From the NCBI RefSeq assembly GCF_988242995.1, contig NZ_OZ547043.1: a stretch of 64,000 nucleotides of DNA; one strand, given 5' to 3'. Of this stretch, positions 38,307-45,737 are shown piece by piece (position 1 is the first letter of the stretch; the number at the start of each line of letters is the position of its first letter). The notes under the pieces are model-generated. The model was not told the DNA's origin, searched no databases, and worked only from the letters and a program-made list of their open reading frames with translations. The position numbers were made by a program, and so were the translations under genes.

Positions 38307-38614
38307 CTTATCTCTCCCCTTAACGCCGGGTGGCGGAACTAACTGCTGCACTGCAAAATTTGAATCCCGCCGTCATGTTCATACGCCTCGGGCTGGCTAC
38401 TTAACCCCTTACCACTGCCTGGTAACTCGAAGTATTGCCCGGCGTTCTGTGGGGCGGGGTGGGTGGTATGCTGGAACTATAGGTAATGCCTAATTGATTG
38501 TCAATAGGCTATGCCTAATGTTTTGAGCGTAACCTAATAGGTGATGGCGACAGCAGAAAGTGATGGGGGGGTTAAATAACGGAATCCAGGAGTTTTCCGT
38601 CAGACCATATAAGT

Positions 38615-39968: not shown

Positions 39969-40826
39969 ATGCTGTTTGTGCTTATTCTAAGCCACCGGGC
40001 AGCATCATACGGGGCAATTATGGCCGCATTACCATACATGCAACTGTACATAGCTGATTACCTGGCTGACACCATGCATTTGTCAGCAGAGGAGCATGGT
40101 GCGTATTTGTTGCTGATGTTCAATTACTGGCAAACAGGAAAGCCAATACCTAAAAACAGGCTGGCAAAAATTGCCCGTCTGACTAACGAGCGATGGGCTG
40201 ATGTTGAACCATCCTTGCAGGAGTTTTTTTGCGATAACGGCGAGGAATGGGTGCATCTTCGGATTGAGGAAGATCTGGCATCAGTCAGGGAAAAATTAAC
40301 CAAAAAATCAGCCGCAGGAAAAGCATCTGTTCAGGCCAGAAGAAGCAGAAAGGAAGCAGATGTTCAAACAAAACAAGAGAGAAATTTAACAGGTGTTCAA
40401 ACAGATGTTGAAGTGGTGTTTGAACATGATGTCAACACAAAGGCAACTAATAAAGATACAGATAAAGATCTAAAAACAGATCCCCCCCTAAATCCCCCCC
40501 GGGGGAATCGAGGTGTCAAAAAGTTTGACCCTCTGGATATTGCTTTGCCGAACTGGATTTCTGTCTCGCTTTGGCGTGAGTGGGTTGAATTTCGCCAGGC
40601 ATTGCGAAAACCGATTCGAACGGAGCAGGGCGCTAACGGGGCGATACGGGAGCTGGAAAAATTCCGCCAGCAGGGTTTTTCACCTGAGCAGGTGATTCGA
40701 CACAGCATCGCCAATGAATACCAGGGCTTGTTCGCGCCGAAAGGTGTTCGACCTGAGACGTTACTCCGACAGGTTAACACCGTCTCGTTACCGGATAGTG
40801 CGATCCCGCCAGGCTTCAGGGGGTAA
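39969..40826 (+). CDS. ydaU: Phage replication initiation protein (O-like) YdaU
   Basis: 285 aa; precedes DnaC-like ydaV. Confidence 0.82.
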   Translation: MLFVLILSHRAASYGAIMAALPYMQLYIADYLADTMHLSAEEHGAYLLLMFNYWQTGKPIPKNRLAKIARLTNERWADVEPSLQEFFCDNGEEWVHLRIEEDLASVREKLTKKSAAGKASVQARRSRKEADVQTKQERNLTGVQTDVEVVFEHDVNTKATNKDTDKDLKTDPPLNPPRGNRGVKKFDPLDIALPNWISVSLWREWVEFRQALRKPIRTEQGANGAIRELEKFRQQGFSPEQVIRHSIANEYQGLFAPKGVRPETLLRQVNTVSLPDSAIPPGFRG

Positions 40827-40832
40827 CTGACC

Positions 40833-41579
40833 ATGAAAAATATTGCGACAGGCGATGTTCTTGAACGTATCCGCAGACTGGCCCCGTCACATGTAACCGC
40901 GCCATTCAAGACGGTAGCGGAGTGGCGCGAGTGGCAACTTTCCGAAGGCCAGAAACGTTGTGAGGAGATCAACCGTCAGAATCGTCAGTTGCGGGTGGAA
41001 AAAATTCTTAATCGCTCTGGCATCCAGCCATTGCACCGCAAATGCTCGTTTTCGAATTACCAGGTGCAGAACGAAGGGCAGCGATACGCGTTGAGTCAGG
41101 CGAAATCCATCGCTGATGAACTGATGACCGGGTGTACAAATTTTGCGTTCAGCGGAAAACCTGGTACCGGAAAAAACCATCTGGCGGCGGCTATCGGGAA
41201 TCGCCTGCTGAAAGATGGCCAGACAGTGATTGTGGTTACCGTGGCTGATGTCATGAGTGCCCTACACGCCAGCTATGACGACGGGCAATCAGGCGAAAAA
41301 TTTTTGCGGGAACTGTGCCAAGTGGATCTGCTGGTTCTTGATGAAATTGGCATTCAGCGCGAGACAAAAAACGAGCAGGTGGTGCTGCACCAGATTGTTG
41401 ATCGCCGGACAGCGTCGATGCGCAGCGTGGGGATGCTGACAAACCTGAATTATGAGGCCATGAAAACATTGCTCGGCGAGAGGATTATGGATCGCATGAC
41501 CATGAACGGCGGGCGATGGGTGAATTTTAACTGGGAGAGCTGGCGTCCGAATGTCGTCCAGCCAGGAATTGCGAAGTAA
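40833..41579 (+). CDS. ydaV: DnaC-like helicase loader (IstB-like ATPase) YdaV
   Basis: 248 aa; Walker [16 protein letters not shown], Walker B LLVLDEIG. Confidence 0.88.
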
Positions 41580-41601
41580 TTTTTACCGGGAGAAAAATTT
41601 A

Positions 41602-42363
41602 ATGGAGACTGTTTTTGACGCACTGAAAGCAATGGGAAAAGCCACATCCATAGAACTTGCTGCGCGACTTGATATCAGCCGTGAAGAAGTGCTGAACGAA
41701 CTATGGGAACTGAAAAAGGCTGGTTTCGTTGATAAAAGCGCGTACACCTGGCGTGTGGCTGATAACAACGTTCAGCAGGAACAGCCAGCGCCGGCAGAAC
41801 TGCCGGAAGAAACTACCACGGCAACAGTCGCGAAAATTTCAGAGAGCGATTTAACTGCGACGATTGAACAACGTGGTCCACTAACTGCGGATGAACTGGC
41901 TACGTTGTTCGGTACCACATCCCGCAAAGTGGCTTCAACGCTGGCAATGGCAATCAGCAAAGCTCGTCTGATTCGCGTTAATCAGAACGGTAAATTTCGT
42001 TACTGCATGCCGGGCGGTAATTTACCAGCAGAGCCGAAAGCTGCATCGGTAGCGGAAACAGATGGTAAAGCCTTTCCTCAGCTAGCCGGTGTTGCGTTAC
42101 CAGTACAGGAAGCTGCAACACAGGAAGATATTAAAACAGAAACTGTGGCGGACATTGTGCAGTCGTTGCCATCGTTTACTGAAACGCAAGCGGATAACCT
42201 GATTTTACCATCGCTGCATATGGCAAACCGTGAACTGCGTCGGGCGAAAAATCATGTCCAGAAGTGGGAGCGAGTCTGCGCCGCGCTGCGGGAGCTGAAC
42301 AAGCACCGGGATATTGTTCGACAGATTTTCGATTCCTCCAGTCGTATTGTGTCGGAAAAGTGA
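41602..42363 (+). CDS. ydaW: Rac prophage protein YdaW (apparently full-length here)
   Basis: about 253 aa from [30 protein letters not shown] (winged-helix-like N-terminus). Confidence 0.7.
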
Positions 42364-42378
42364 TTGCCGGAGGCACCT

Positions 42379-42810
42379 ATGGCAAAAGTATTTACACCAG
42401 AAGAGCGGGAAAAAATTAAAGGGCAGGTTGTTGAACTTGTACGTCTGAGCGGTCGCGAGACGTTACGGGCTCTGGAGGCTAAAACCGGTGCATCAAGGTA
42501 TTACATAAGCACTCTCGCCAGAGAACTGGTCGCCAGTGGTGATGTTTACAATTCAGGCTACGGATTATTCCCGTCTGAGCAGGCTCGTAAGGACTGGCAA
42601 AACGCCCGCAAAAAACTATCCAGGGCAAAGGTGAAAAAAACGGTTGTGGTTGATCCTGACCTTATCTGGTCATTACCAGACGGAGAAATACGCCGCTACG
42701 ACAGGCGCCTGAATATAATCTGTCGCGAGTGCCGGAAAAGCGAAGTTATGCAGCGTGTACTGGCATTTTACCAGAGTAATTTCAGGAGGTTGTCTGGTGA
42801 GCACGATTAA
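42379..42810 (+). CDS. Hypothetical protein with CxxC pair, function unknown
   Basis: 143 aa from MAKVFTPEEREKIKGQVVELV; contains IICRECRK. Confidence 0.55.
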   Translation: MAKVFTPEEREKIKGQVVELVRLSGRETLRALEAKTGASRYYISTLARELVASGDVYNSGYGLFPSEQARKDWQNARKKLSRAKVKKTVVVDPDLIWSLPDGEIRRYDRRLNIICRECRKSEVMQRVLAFYQSNFRRLSGEHD

Positions 42811-42843
42811 CTACTAGGGGGGATAACAATAAAATAAAGCCTC

Positions 42844-43884
42844 CTAGGAGGCTTTGATTATATTAAGCAAATGTTTTCCAATCGTTTCAGACATCTTCGG
42901 AGGGACCGCATTTCCTATTTGACGAGCCCGAGATTGCAAAGAACCAATAAATTTATAATCCAAAGGAAATGTTTGTAGACACGCTGCTTCACGAACCGAT
43001 ATTGCTCGATTTTGTGTTGGATGTCCAAAACGTCCATTTGAATAGCTAATACAACGAGTTGTTAGTCCGCTGGCTGGTTTGTCCCAACTCAAACGTCCAT
43101 ATACGTCTGTATGCCCTTTATGGTTACGATGGCATTCTAAAATCAATTCATCTGGCCAAAATTCTCGACTTCCACCTTCAGGAGTGCATTTTATTCTACG
43201 TAAATTAAGCTCTGATAAGCGTGCAGCTTCATGATCAGGAATACTATTATGCTTTTCTCCTGCTTCTATCTTCGGTAAATTAGCGATCCAGTCCTTTACT
43301 GTTGAATAGGGAGTATTTCCAACCCCATGTGTAGGAGAAGGCAATGCGACATAAAAATCCTTGGATGCAATGAGCACTAATCTTTCTCGCGTCTGTGGTA
43401 CACCGTACCACGCAGCTGGCATTACTTTATAATCTACACTATATCCCTTTGATGAAAGCATTTCTAAAAACATCATGAATGTTCCTTCATTTTTGTTAAA
43501 CTTTTGCATTCCTGGCACGTTTTCAACAAAAATAAAATCAGGCATATAATGCTCTACAAAGCGACTGAATTCCTTTAATAGATCTAATCGTGGATCATCA
43601 TTTTTCTTATTTGAGTTTTGCTTAGAGTACGGTTGACAAGGCGCACATCCTGAAAAAAGAATGTAATCATTACGATGTTTTTTTACTAACTTGTTTATGG
43701 CATTGTTGTCGATTAACCTAATGTCCGAGTTAATAAAAGCAGCCTGCGGGAAATTTGCACGAAATGAACTGGCTGCATCAACGTCGAAATCGAGGCCAAA
43801 AACAATATCCATTCCAGCTTGATGGAAACCTTGGCTGGTTCCACCACAACCGGAAAAGAAGTCAAACACTTTGATTTTTTTCAT
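42844..43884 (-). CDS. DNA (cytosine-5)-methyltransferase
   Basis: 346 aa from MKKIKVFDFFSGCGG; motif I FSGCGG, motif IV GCAPCQPYS, motif VI ENVPGM, motif VIII QTRERLVLIA, motif X GNAVPP; RBS AGAGGGA. Confidence 0.9.
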   Translation of the reverse strand: MKKIKVFDFFSGCGGTSQGFHQAGMDIVFGLDFDVDAASSFRANFPQAAFINSDIRLIDNNAINKLVKKHRNDYILFSGCAPCQPYSKQNSNKKNDDPRLDLLKEFSRFVEHYMPDFIFVENVPGMQKFNKNEGTFMMFLEMLSSKGYSVDYKVMPAAWYGVPQTRERLVLIASKDFYVALPSPTHGVGNTPYSTVKDWIANLPKIEAGEKHNSIPDHEAARLSELNLRRIKCTPEGGSREFWPDELILECHRNHKGHTDVYGRLSWDKPASGLTTRCISYSNGRFGHPTQNRAISVREAACLQTFPLDYKFIGSLQSRARQIGNAVPPKMSETIGKHLLNIIKAS

Positions 43885-43907
43885 TTTTCCCTCTGCATCC
43901 AGAATCA

Positions 43908-45737
43908 CTACCTAATGATACCACGGTCAAGAGCCTGAGTAATTATTTTTCTTATTTTTATAAATTCAGGCAATTCATTTTTAAGTCTTGCGGTCATCAT
44001 TTGTTGGAGGCAAAAAATTTCCTCTGCATTTACTTCTTCTTTATCATACAGGTGTTGCGCTAATAATCTTATTTGATTCTTATACAGTTCTGGATCATTA
44101 GAACTCCAGGTCTGTGAATCAATTATTTCTTTTTCACTTGGCGTAATTGCCTTTTCAATGAGTAATTGTTCGGGAGTATCAAATGGTAAATACTTCACTT
44201 TATTGAATGCATACTCAAGCACTTGCCTTTTGAGTCTATTAGATTCTTGTTCATTTTTTTTGCCATTACTACCACTGGCATTGATAATTAACTCGCAACC
44301 ATAATATTTGCACATTGTATTAACTAAATCAGCATCAGCAATTTCACTAATTCTTACTGGTTTTATTTTTTTGTTTTTATCACCATCAAGTAAAAACAAA
44401 ATATCATTGCGTTCTACCACAGCGTAACTGGGAAGATGCTTGCTTAAAATGGTCTCCGAACCACCTGGTATATAACTTACACTAAATGATAAGCTTAATC
44501 TTTCATCATTTTTAATCGCTTTATCTATAATTGCTTTAGCTAATTTATCTTCTACAATTATTGTTTTCTTGTTAATATCATGCCCTAGCTCTATAAAAGC
44601 TTCATCCGGTGCTATATTTTGAACTATTTTAGCTGTTTCACTCTCTTCATCAAAAACAAATAATTTAATGGCATCTTTGGGAAGAGTGTTCACAATAACA
44701 GGAGAATGGGTTGATATTACCACTTGATGTTTTTTCTGCTCAACAATAGAGTACAGAACATCCATCATCCTTTTTTGTGCACCAGGGTGAAGTGAAACTT
44801 CTGGTTCGTCAAGAAGAATTAATGAATTAGGTTTGGCCGAATAAATATTGAGTATTAGTGAAACTATTGCAAATTCACCACTTCCAGCAAACGCTTCTGT
44901 ATAGTTCAACTTATCAGTTGAAAGTAAAGCGGTTCCTCCTCTGGTTCCAAATAACCGATGCTCAAGAAATTTAATGACTTTATATTTTTTCCCTAATATA
45001 AATGAGACGTGCTCAACTAGTTCTGGCGCCAAGGTTATATTTTTAACAATGGTTTCCGCCCCCCAGAGTCTTAAATTACTTAGCTTTTCATCAAAAGCTT
45101 TCTTTATATATTTAGATTTGCTTCTGATATAGTCTTGCTTTGTAATTAATACACCACTCTTCTTCTTTCTTAATTTAAAATCAGAGTGATACATACATCT
45201 ATCAAATGCACTTATTTCCGATCTGAAATCTAGGAAAACCAATCCCTTCTTGATTTTTTTCCATCTGGTTGCATTACTATTAGCACCCAGATCATCCGAA
45301 ATACTCTCCATGTTATCACCAACAGATGGTCGACTTGTTTCCCAATAATCGATTGTTTTCTTGGTAGCATTGATACGTGCTTGGAGTATTTCAACTAAAC
45401 GGCCATCAGCATTTTTATATCCATATATATATCTAGGTTTAAGAGAACTGCCATCAGCAAGTTTTAGGTCAGGAAACTCATCTGTTTCAGTTGTGAACCA
45501 ATAACGAGTTATATTTTTACCATGTGGGCAACCAAATAGCGCTTTGATAACAGAACTTTTATTAGTTCCATTTTTTCCTACTAAAGCCGTTATAGGGAAC
45601 TGAAAATCGATCCTTGCATTCTGCTCTATATTTTTAAAGTATGGAAAACGGATATGTTGTATGAATGGTTCAAATTCACCGTTTTTTAACGCGCACTGGA
45701 GTGTTCGAATTTTGCTCTTGTATGCGGAAGTGCTCAT
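43908..45737 (-). CDS. ABC-type ATPase fused to C-terminal Toprim-like domain (OLD-family-like nuclease candidate)
   Basis: 609 aa; Walker A LVGKNGTNKSS, Walker B/D-loop SLILLDEPEVSLHP, H-loop VISTHSPVI; C-terminal IIVEDKLAKA glutamate and FLLDGDKN DxD suggest Toprim; 23 bp upstream of MTase on same strand. Confidence 0.7.
   Translation of the reverse strand: MSTSAYKSKIRTLQCALKNGEFEPFIQHIRFPYFKNIEQNARIDFQFPITALVGKNGTNKSSVIKALFGCPHGKNITRYWFTTETDEFPDLKLADGSSLKPRYIYGYKNADGRLVEILQARINATKKTIDYWETSRPSVGDNMESISDDLGANSNATRWKKIKKGLVFLDFRSEISAFDRCMYHSDFKLRKKKSGVLITKQDYIRSKSKYIKKAFDEKLSNLRLWGAETIVKNITLAPELVEHVSFILGKKYKVIKFLEHRLFGTRGGTALLSTDKLNYTEAFAGSGEFAIVSLILNIYSAKPNSLILLDEPEVSLHPGAQKRMMDVLYSIVEQKKHQVVISTHSPVIVNTLPKDAIKLFVFDEESETAKIVQNIAPDEAFIELGHDINKKTIIVEDKLAKAIIDKAIKNDERLSLSFSVSYIPGGSETILSKHLPSYAVVERNDILFLLDGDKNKKIKPVRISEIADADLVNTMCKYYGCELIINASGSNGKKNEQESNRLKRQVLEYAFNKVKYLPFDTPEQLLIEKAITPSEKEIIDSQTWSSNDPELYKNQIRLLAQHLYDKEEVNAEEIFCLQQMMTARLKNELPEFIKIRKIITQALDRGIIR

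Follow-up and report, generated by a model that had tools for sequence, protein, structure and literature searches.

The C-run block and the origin-like region of ydaU

ydaU, the replication initiator gene of a Rac-like prophage, lies on the 64-kb stretch of DNA analysed here (the window; contig NZ_OZ547043.1 of RefSeq assembly GCF_988242995.1) and carries, within its coding sequence, a compact block of two runs of seven C residues followed by a run of five G residues (Table 1). The block belongs to a DNA element of the general form C5-8, an AT-rich spacer of 3-6 nucleotides, C5-8 and often G4-6, which is conserved in position, in architecture, at synonymous sites and across codon phases. The letters of the block within ydaU are GATCCCCCCCTAAATCCCCCCCGGGGG (in the wider context of the window, ...AAAGATCTAAAAACAGATCCCCCCCTAAATCCCCCCCGGGGGAATCGAGG...) and its translation is TDPPLNPPRGNRG, that is, D171 P P L N P P R G N R G in the ydaU frame. 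An earlier reading of the letters, made without database searches (the sequence-only reading), had described the two C7 tracts and the G5 tract within a replication initiator-like ydaU; the tracts are present exactly at the coordinates it gave, its peptide is correct, and the gene assignment is borne out by identity of up to 100% and by the Pfam domain DUF1376. Each C run belongs to one of two tandem copies of a 12-bp unit, ATCCCCCCCTAA. Their pairing exceeds what chance would give, because only three C runs of at least 7 are found in the whole window (against ~1.5 expected from its composition) and two of them are 12 bp apart in ydaU. The other length-7 G/C homopolymers of the window are a C7 at 18118 and G7 runs at 38565 and 62300.

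Table 1. Features in and next to ydaU, in coordinates of the window.
Feature	Position	Strand	Remarks
ydaU	39969-40826	+	Rac-type phage replication initiator, 285 residues; open reading frame (ORF) with up to 100% identity to annotated ydaU
DUF1376 N-terminal domain	40032-40280	+	residues 22-104; Pfam E = 2.7e-26
Iteron-like repeat cluster	40321-40438		repeat families D1/D3 and inverted pairs I2/I5; both orientations
AT-rich stretch, candidate DNA-unwinding element	40440-40481		42 bp, G+C fraction 0.275; codes for KATNKDTDKDLKTD
C7 run 1	40482-40488	+	codons P172 and P173 and first base of L174; part of the unit ATCCCCCCCTAA at 40480-40491
Spacer TAAAT	40489-40493	+	AT-rich, separates the C runs; in relatives TTAAAT, TATAAT, TATAGT, TATAT or TTAAT
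C7 run 2	40494-40500	+	P176, P177 and first base of R178; most +/-1 assembly variants fall here
G5 run	40501-40505	+	remainder of R178 (CGG) and G179 (GGG)
YdaU C-terminal module	40506-40826	+	basic patch, FDPL..LPxW..W..W and a tail, VNTVSLPDSAIPPGFRG, resembling the DnaT C-terminus
ydaV	40833-41579	+	DnaC/IstB-like helicase loader; Pfam IstB_IS21 and Bac_DnaA; PHROG 50 'DnaC-like helicase loader'

In the part of ydaU that joins DUF1376 to the C-terminal module, the iteron-like repeats, the AT-rich stretch and the C/G block follow one another in this order, and the DnaC-like ydaV comes next. The repeats include exact copies of RTGTTCAAACA at 40360-40370 (+), 40393-40403 (+) and 40417-40427 (-), surrounded by degenerate copies; these three, all within 68 bp, are the only exact copies in the window, and the repeats are candidate initiator-binding sites. 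The segment 40445-40481 of the AT-rich stretch is among the least stable 0.3% of the window's 37-mers by nearest-neighbour energy, and the step in stability at 40481, where the C runs begin, is in the top 0.04% of window positions. Three features expected of a lambda-type embedded origin are found: a repeat cluster between protein domains, an adjoining AT-rich stretch, and repeats and loader that co-vary with the two ends of the protein.

The AT-rich stretch also holds two GATC (Dam) sites, at 40467-40470 and 40479-40482, the second of which abuts the first C run. All 10 lineages that have Asp before the C run write it GAT, and GATC-C6 is therefore kept in the enterobacterial versions of the element; this conserved junction may bear on methylation or SeqA control of the origin. 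In NZ_CP074800.1, an IS3-family insertion lies in the AT-rich stretch, at the equivalent of ~40463 and just 5' of the first C run, and truncates ydaU at nucleotide 494/495.

Conservation of the motif at the nucleotide level

The peptide encoded by the block is itself recurrent: PPxNPP(R/K)G or TPPNPRKRG stands about 10 residues before FDPL..LPxW..W..W in many of 150 representative relatives, down to ~35% identity. This recurrence, together with the flexible linker that joins the domains of lambda O (PMC6022878), is what would be expected if the tracts incidentally encoded a conserved PPxNPPxG hinge of the protein, with no function at the level of DNA. The nucleotides argue against such an explanation. 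The relatives used for the DNA comparison were picked by protein similarity; they share synteny (a repressor, a Cro-like gene, a YdaT-like gene, the initiator and a loader), the initiators have DUF1376, HTH_36/DnaD_N, Phage_rep_O or T5orf172 at the N-terminus, and are accompanied by either a DnaC-like or a lambda-P-like loader. All of them write the motif in near-identical nucleotides, (GAT)CCCCCC-TTAAAT-CCCCCC-AAGGGGAAA and close variants.

Among 16 lineage representatives with less than 85% identity in the C-terminal domain, the Pro codons of the motif are CCC in 53 of 57 cases (with three CCT, one CCA and no CCG); the corresponding count at five further conserved Pro columns in these genes is 9 of 77 (Fisher p = 6.6e-23). 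Likewise, the Gly codon of the motif is GGG in 12/14, as compared to 17/59 at other conserved Gly positions (p = 1.4e-4). Thus, the synonymous sites of the motif are fixed while those of other conserved Pro and Gly codons vary freely. Moreover, neighbouring codons for residues other than Pro extend the run and keep it at C6, as with ACC-CCC-C for Thr-Pro-Leu, or AAC-CCC-CCA where the last Pro is written CCA. The sequence beside the runs has diverged, so that conservation is sharply confined to the runs. CCC, CTA, CGG, GGG and CGA are rare codons in E. coli, which also speaks against selection for the peptide only. Run lengths among the lineages are 5-7 for the first C run, 5-8 for the second and 4-5 for the G run, and the C7/C7/G5 of the window is at the long end, because the Leu (CTA) and Arg (CGG) codons each add one C.

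The element in other phage initiator genes

A scan of IMG/VR with the pattern CCCCCC-N5-6-CCCCCC-N0-2-GGGGRA gave at least 120 matches. Among the 120 listed, 109 lie in a reading frame that is open across the element and on the C-rich strand, and 89 have an AT-rich spacer (CTAAAT, TATAGT, TATAT, TTAAT, TATAAT and others); in the matches listed, the 45 nucleotides upstream are 70% AT (median), in loci of 50% AT. Ten proteins from the matches listed were scanned against Pfam, and eight of them start with a domain of replication initiators or organizers (Lin1244_N, HTH_36, Phage_rep_org_N, Phage_rep_O, DUF1376 or DnaD_N). With a mirrored control pattern the matches were of another kind: among the 125 listed, 61 are poly-C ends of contigs and only seven have an AT-rich spacer.

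The codon phase in which the first run begins is 0 in 53, 2 in 38 and 1 in 27 of 118 distinct in-ORF instances, and the peptide changes with the phase (PPYNPPKG, TPLTPQG and PPISPQG; also IPPYSPPKGD, NPPISPQGD and TPLTPQGG). Because translation runs through one DNA element in three phases, it is the DNA that is conserved, and neither a peptide nor a frameshift device. A hinge of the protein does not predict that peptides as different as PPISPQG and PPYNPPKG be encoded by the same nucleotides, and in view of this and of the codon usage described above, we consider a purely protein-level origin of the tracts improbable.

The same instances bear on a translational role, in which the slippery CCC-C codons, together with stalling at Pro-Pro, would cause a pause or a +1 frameshift and yield a product consisting of the N-terminal domain only. 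CCC-C is a +1-prone site, and the +1 frame of ydaU in the window, CCC CCC TAA, would stop translation directly behind the linker. A programmed frameshift would entail a fixed phase and a conserved outcome in the alternative frame; the run is found in all three phases, and a stop lies within three codons in only 42/118 (+1) and 38/118 (-1) instances, or about one third in either frame. In many versions, moreover, the second run accounts for just one Pro. A translational device thus seems most unlikely.

The element is also found well outside the close relatives of ydaU. Gifsy-2, Klebsiella phage 6, phiES15, mEpX1, Pasteurella Pmp13 and Hafnia Pocitis76 carry the C-terminal module of YdaU, and in all six the AT-rich stretch ends ...ATTAATAA and is followed directly by C5-6, TAWAW and C5-6; iteron-like repeats are visible upstream in five of the six, and are lambda-like in Gifsy-2. 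A second, unrelated initiator family, from gut phages of Firmicutes, was recruited by peptide patterns lying outside the motif, and has the element in 9/9 lineages. In this family CCC makes up 25 of the 32 Pro codons inside the element and 43 of the 178 elsewhere (p = 9e-9), with the same compensation by neighbouring codons. In the literature searched, no paper mentions the sequences of the element.

Mosaic relatives and the edge of the C-terminal module

BLAST matches to ydaU extend over gene positions 1-494/507 or 485/497-858, and the breaks lie just 5' of the block. Two relatives with the same N-terminal module, FHI_NMBU_11 and the phage Rac-SA53, keep the repeats and the AT-rich stretch and lack the C runs; in both, another C-terminal module follows, and then a lambda-P-like gene. 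Relatives with another N-terminal module have GTTAC-type repeats, then the same C-terminal module as YdaU, which opens with GATCTCCCCCTAAATCCCCCTCGCC (C5+C5, DLPLNPPRQ), and then ydaV. In these mosaics the block goes with the C-terminal module, and therefore belongs to its 5' edge. In the sampled relatives, the tail ...PDxxIPxGFRG pairs with a DnaC-like loader, and other tails pair with a lambda-P-like loader. Several relatives have their own short repeat family just 5' of the AT-rich stretch: L098 has the CTAC type, L099 GGTGCA, L100 and L101 GTAACG, and L102 GGGGCT. The repeat families of L098-L103 fit iterons that would co-vary with the N-terminal domain.

These breakpoints raise the question of whether the block is simply a joint for module exchange, that is, a shared linker of ~25 bp at which homologous recombination joins N- and C-terminal modules and which the recombinants inherit. 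The position of the breakpoints directly 5' of the block is in line with this idea, as is the finding of the same N-terminal module with the other C-terminal module and a lambda-P-like loader (L009, Rac-SA53) and of different N-terminal modules on the C-terminal module of YdaU (L010, L097, L098-L106). Against it, selection for exchangeability is indirect, and the element is kept in phages of hosts as distant as enterobacteria, Pasteurella and gut bacteria, which are unlikely to recombine with one another; moreover, conservation is limited to the runs, and the adjoining sequence has diverged. We consider a joint maintained for exchange unlikely as the explanation of the block, with a better standing than a hinge of the protein; it is also compatible with a cis-acting role.

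Tract length among assemblies

The sequence-only reading had proposed that slippage in the C7 runs could switch the replication competence of the prophage, and had suggested tract length among homologues, and its invariance among reads and strains, as tests. A 94-bp probe was compared with 5426 complete E. coli genomes and found the site in 744. About 635 of these (~85%) fall in the band of at least 99% identity, which for this probe means identity over the aligned part, that is, C7+C7. Length variants were counted with variant-specific probes: C7+C6 in 12 records, C6+C7 in 5, C7+C8 in 5, C6+C6 in 4, and other indel variants in a few. Frameshifting lengths thus occur in ~28/744 records (3.8%), and all those sampled are annotated as frameshifted pseudogenes. 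A change of +/-1 truncates YdaU to 173, 186 or 241 residues, as the sequence-only reading had foreseen when it warned both of truncation and of sequencing or assembly error at these runs. The one clear natural polymorphism is in frame, and consists in two or three copies of the 12-bp unit ATCCCCCCCTAA; the third copy is present in ~16 records, for example in O145:H28 strain RM12581 (NZ_CP007136.1), where the in-frame sequence DPPLNPPLNPPRG brings a third C7 run and leaves the gene intact.

The frameshifting variants are scattered singletons over unrelated strains, and 21 of the 28 are -1. Both tracts are at -1 (C6+C6) in four assemblies, and double and triple -1 changes are over-represented; in RM12275 all three tracts are C6, while in the related O145 strain RM12581 all three are C7. 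Variant carriers include isolated laboratory derivatives of K-12 (NEB10-beta, ER1709, Dam/Dcm, J53-Thailand and TUM24769), the sister assemblies of which have C7+C7, and the variants in laboratory strains are seen in long-read assemblies. Over 40 kb, the only changes in J53-Thailand (NZ_CP195070.1) relative to MG1655 are two deletions of one base, each in a G/C homopolymer; the second, an intergenic G6 -> G5 (L012, ~24436), serves as an internal indicator of homopolymer error. Over the same length, the ydaU deletion is the sole indel of NEB10-beta relative to MG1655. An additional T7 -> T8 change occurs elsewhere in ydaU in 2014C-4423. Scatter, a predominance of -1 and correlation between the tracts of one assembly make up the pattern of homopolymer miscalling, and we therefore attribute most of the +/-1 variants in public assemblies to miscalls, real slippage being rare and simply inactivating ydaU. 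In 80 of 80 IMG/VR prophage contigs examined the tracts are C7+C7; these contigs are best in-frame protein matches, and hence biased to intact copies.

One variant has better credentials. The heat-evolved K-12 strain BM28 is reported to have a frameshift in ydaU, at codon 178 of 285, although the change is listed for BM28 only, the strain that also had Nanopore data (PMC10044804). The BM28 assembly, a hybrid of Illumina and Nanopore reads, carries C7+C8 and is the sole variant with short-read backing, so that the +1 is plausibly real. Except for this frameshift, the literature on DUF1376 and ydaU was uninformative.

Is ydaU, then, a contingency locus, in which slipped-strand mispairing at the C7 runs reversibly switches the gene and the replication competence of the prophage? 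[quoted passage not shown] Tract length is not strictly invariant, since variants do exist, but their pattern points to assembly error. In homologues the runs are mostly C5-C6, under nucleotide-level conservation (at synonymous sites in 16 + 9 lineages), where a hypermutable contingency tract would lead one to expect the opposite, and out-of-frame stops are not conserved. The proposed switch finds no support here, and we hold it to be highly improbable.

A proposed role at the boundary of an unwinding region

We favour the view that the block is a conserved element that acts in cis at the edge of an origin's unwinding region, the Rac copy of a DNA element found in many phage initiator genes, and not a phase switch; we put its probability at roughly 0.55. 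In these genes the iterons are followed by the AT-rich stretch and this, directly 3', by the element, which is therefore at the joint of the origin-binding and the loader-recruiting modules. There, the highly stable G:C pairs of the block would form a boundary, or clamp, and hold initiator-induced melting within the AT-rich segment. It might also mark the point of module exchange, which possibly aids its persistence, and the Pro-Pro-x-x-Pro-Pro-x-Gly hinge would be the in-frame readout of the DNA element. More broadly, and more tentatively, the C-run pair may be an undescribed cis component of origins embedded in phage initiator genes, conserved as DNA whatever its phase, which sets the edge of the unwinding region or a point of replisome entry or priming in phages of enterobacteria, Pasteurellaceae and gut bacteria with at least six unrelated N-terminal domains, the Pro-rich hinge being a by-product; this wider proposal seems to us possible, and clearly less probable than the view taken for ydaU itself.

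Several points weigh against the favoured view. The Rac prophage has an origin, oriJ (PMC3945230), the nucleotide position of which was not found in the literature searched, and the annotation of NC_000913.3 has no origin feature within Rac; the literature searched gave no experiment that maps oriJ to these nucleotides, and an origin function of the ydaU region is deduced from its anatomy alone. A C-run pair is missing from lambda, and the element from the origins that experiments have mapped within the rep genes of TP901-1 and Tuc2009; it is therefore not required for this kind of origin; the G run is absent in mEpX1, Pmp13 and Pocitis76, and so is optional. The lineages compared are phylogenetically non-independent, the IMG/VR matches were selected on C runs by construction, and the real and mirrored patterns were compared by kind of match and not by frequency. 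A clamp is not distinguished from other DNA-level roles by the analyses made, and the conservation could in part stem from a recombination joint. Two further candidates were set aside: folding of the single-stranded DNA, for both strands and in a larger context, gave no hairpin or cruciform better than in shuffled sequence (z = 0.13, -0.07 and -1.5), and no sigma-70-like site of an internal promoter lies at 40250-40650. The spacer, likewise, resembles a -10 hexamer in some phages, and the CTAAAT of E. coli is a poor one.

In practical terms, frameshifted ydaU pseudogenes in long-read assemblies of E. coli are best treated as probable homopolymer miscalls, and the site is a handy check of the accuracy of an assembly at G/C homopolymers. 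The nucleotide signature is widespread in phage initiator genes and apparently undescribed, and its role can be tested by synonymous recoding. If the C-run pair is functional, the succession of repeats, AT-rich stretch, C run, AT spacer and C run could serve to locate origins in the initiator genes of phages and prophages of many hosts. The favoured view, if true, would also explain why a PPxxPPxG hinge is common to many unrelated replication initiators, and would offer a testable handle on what bounds the unwinding region and on the shuffling of origin-binding and loader-binding modules.

YdaU, its modules and neighbouring genes

Matches of ydaU to a 'YdaU family protein' come from 1505 E. 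coli genomes, with identity up to 100%; the PHROG matches of its C-terminal part are 6451 'primosomal protein' and phrog_678 'replication initiation O-like', and NCBIfam has no model for YdaU. The DUF1376 domain is presumed to be the origin-binding module, and in relatives where it is swapped out the upstream repeats are of a different type. The C-terminal module is common to initiators with differing N-terminal domains (2703 relatives at E <= 0.001), and ydaV is its partner. The true start of ydaU may be the ATG at 40020 and not the upstream start (MLFVLILSHRAASYGAIM..., 39969-40020); the PHROG alignment and several homologues (including L187) start at MAALPYMQLY, which corresponds to this ATG.

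The gene order racR, ydaS, ydaT, ydaU and ydaV is that of K-12, and marks the prophage as Rac-like. 3' of ydaV, the region 41551-43908 is unlike the Rac of K-12, and has an intact DUF1627 protein (270 residues), an ORF of 148 residues and, on the minus strand, an ORF at 42844-43908 that by eye resembles a DNA cytosine-5 methyltransferase; the K-12 counterpart has a truncated ydaW, rzpR and trkG.

Comparison with known systems

Contingency loci of Haemophilus, Neisseria and Campylobacter resemble ydaU in having a G/C homopolymer within a coding region, where a change of +/-1 truncates the product. The tracts of those genera are typically of at least 8 and visibly polymorphic among close relatives; in ydaU, in contrast, tract length is essentially fixed, the homologues mostly have runs of 5-6, and the sequence is conserved. 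Iteron plasmid origins of the RK2 oriV type also bring together iterons, an AT-rich element and then a short GC-rich block, the role of which is poorly defined. They differ in being plasmid-borne and non-coding and in having no defined C-run pair, and we take the likeness as a lead only.

The host's own primosome offers a second parallel. Residues 210-285 of YdaU align with the C-terminal region of E. coli DnaT, with a near-identical tail, VNTVSxPDSxIPPGFRG. The match of the YdaU C-terminus to DnaT in PDB entries 2ru8 and 9zbt is weak overall (E = 0.003-0.01), with the terminal IPPGFRG shared. dnaT and dnaC follow one another in an operon, and with its DnaT-like tail the pair ydaU-ydaV therefore parallels dnaT-dnaC. 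DnaT itself differs in having no DUF1376 domain, embedded repeats, AT-rich stretch or C-run block. The alternative C-terminal module of Rac-SA53 and FHI_NMBU_11 (L009/L096) looks by eye like what we take to be the central region of DnaT; if so, both types of C-terminal module carry DnaT-like pieces.

The closest known system is ori-lambda. It lies inside gene O, in the part that encodes the linker between the domains, and consists of iterons bound by the N-terminal domain of the initiator and an adjacent AT-rich unwinding region; the C-terminal domain of O recruits the helicase loader, which is encoded by the next gene (PMC6022878; PMC7466680). The components of ydaU are different: DUF1376 takes the place of Phage_rep_O, the repeats are of the TGTTCAAACA type, the loader is DnaC-like instead of P, and a C-run pair follows the AT-rich stretch. 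In lambda, an imperfect palindrome occupies the stretch after the AT-rich region. The order of the parts, nevertheless, is the same in ydaU as in lambda.

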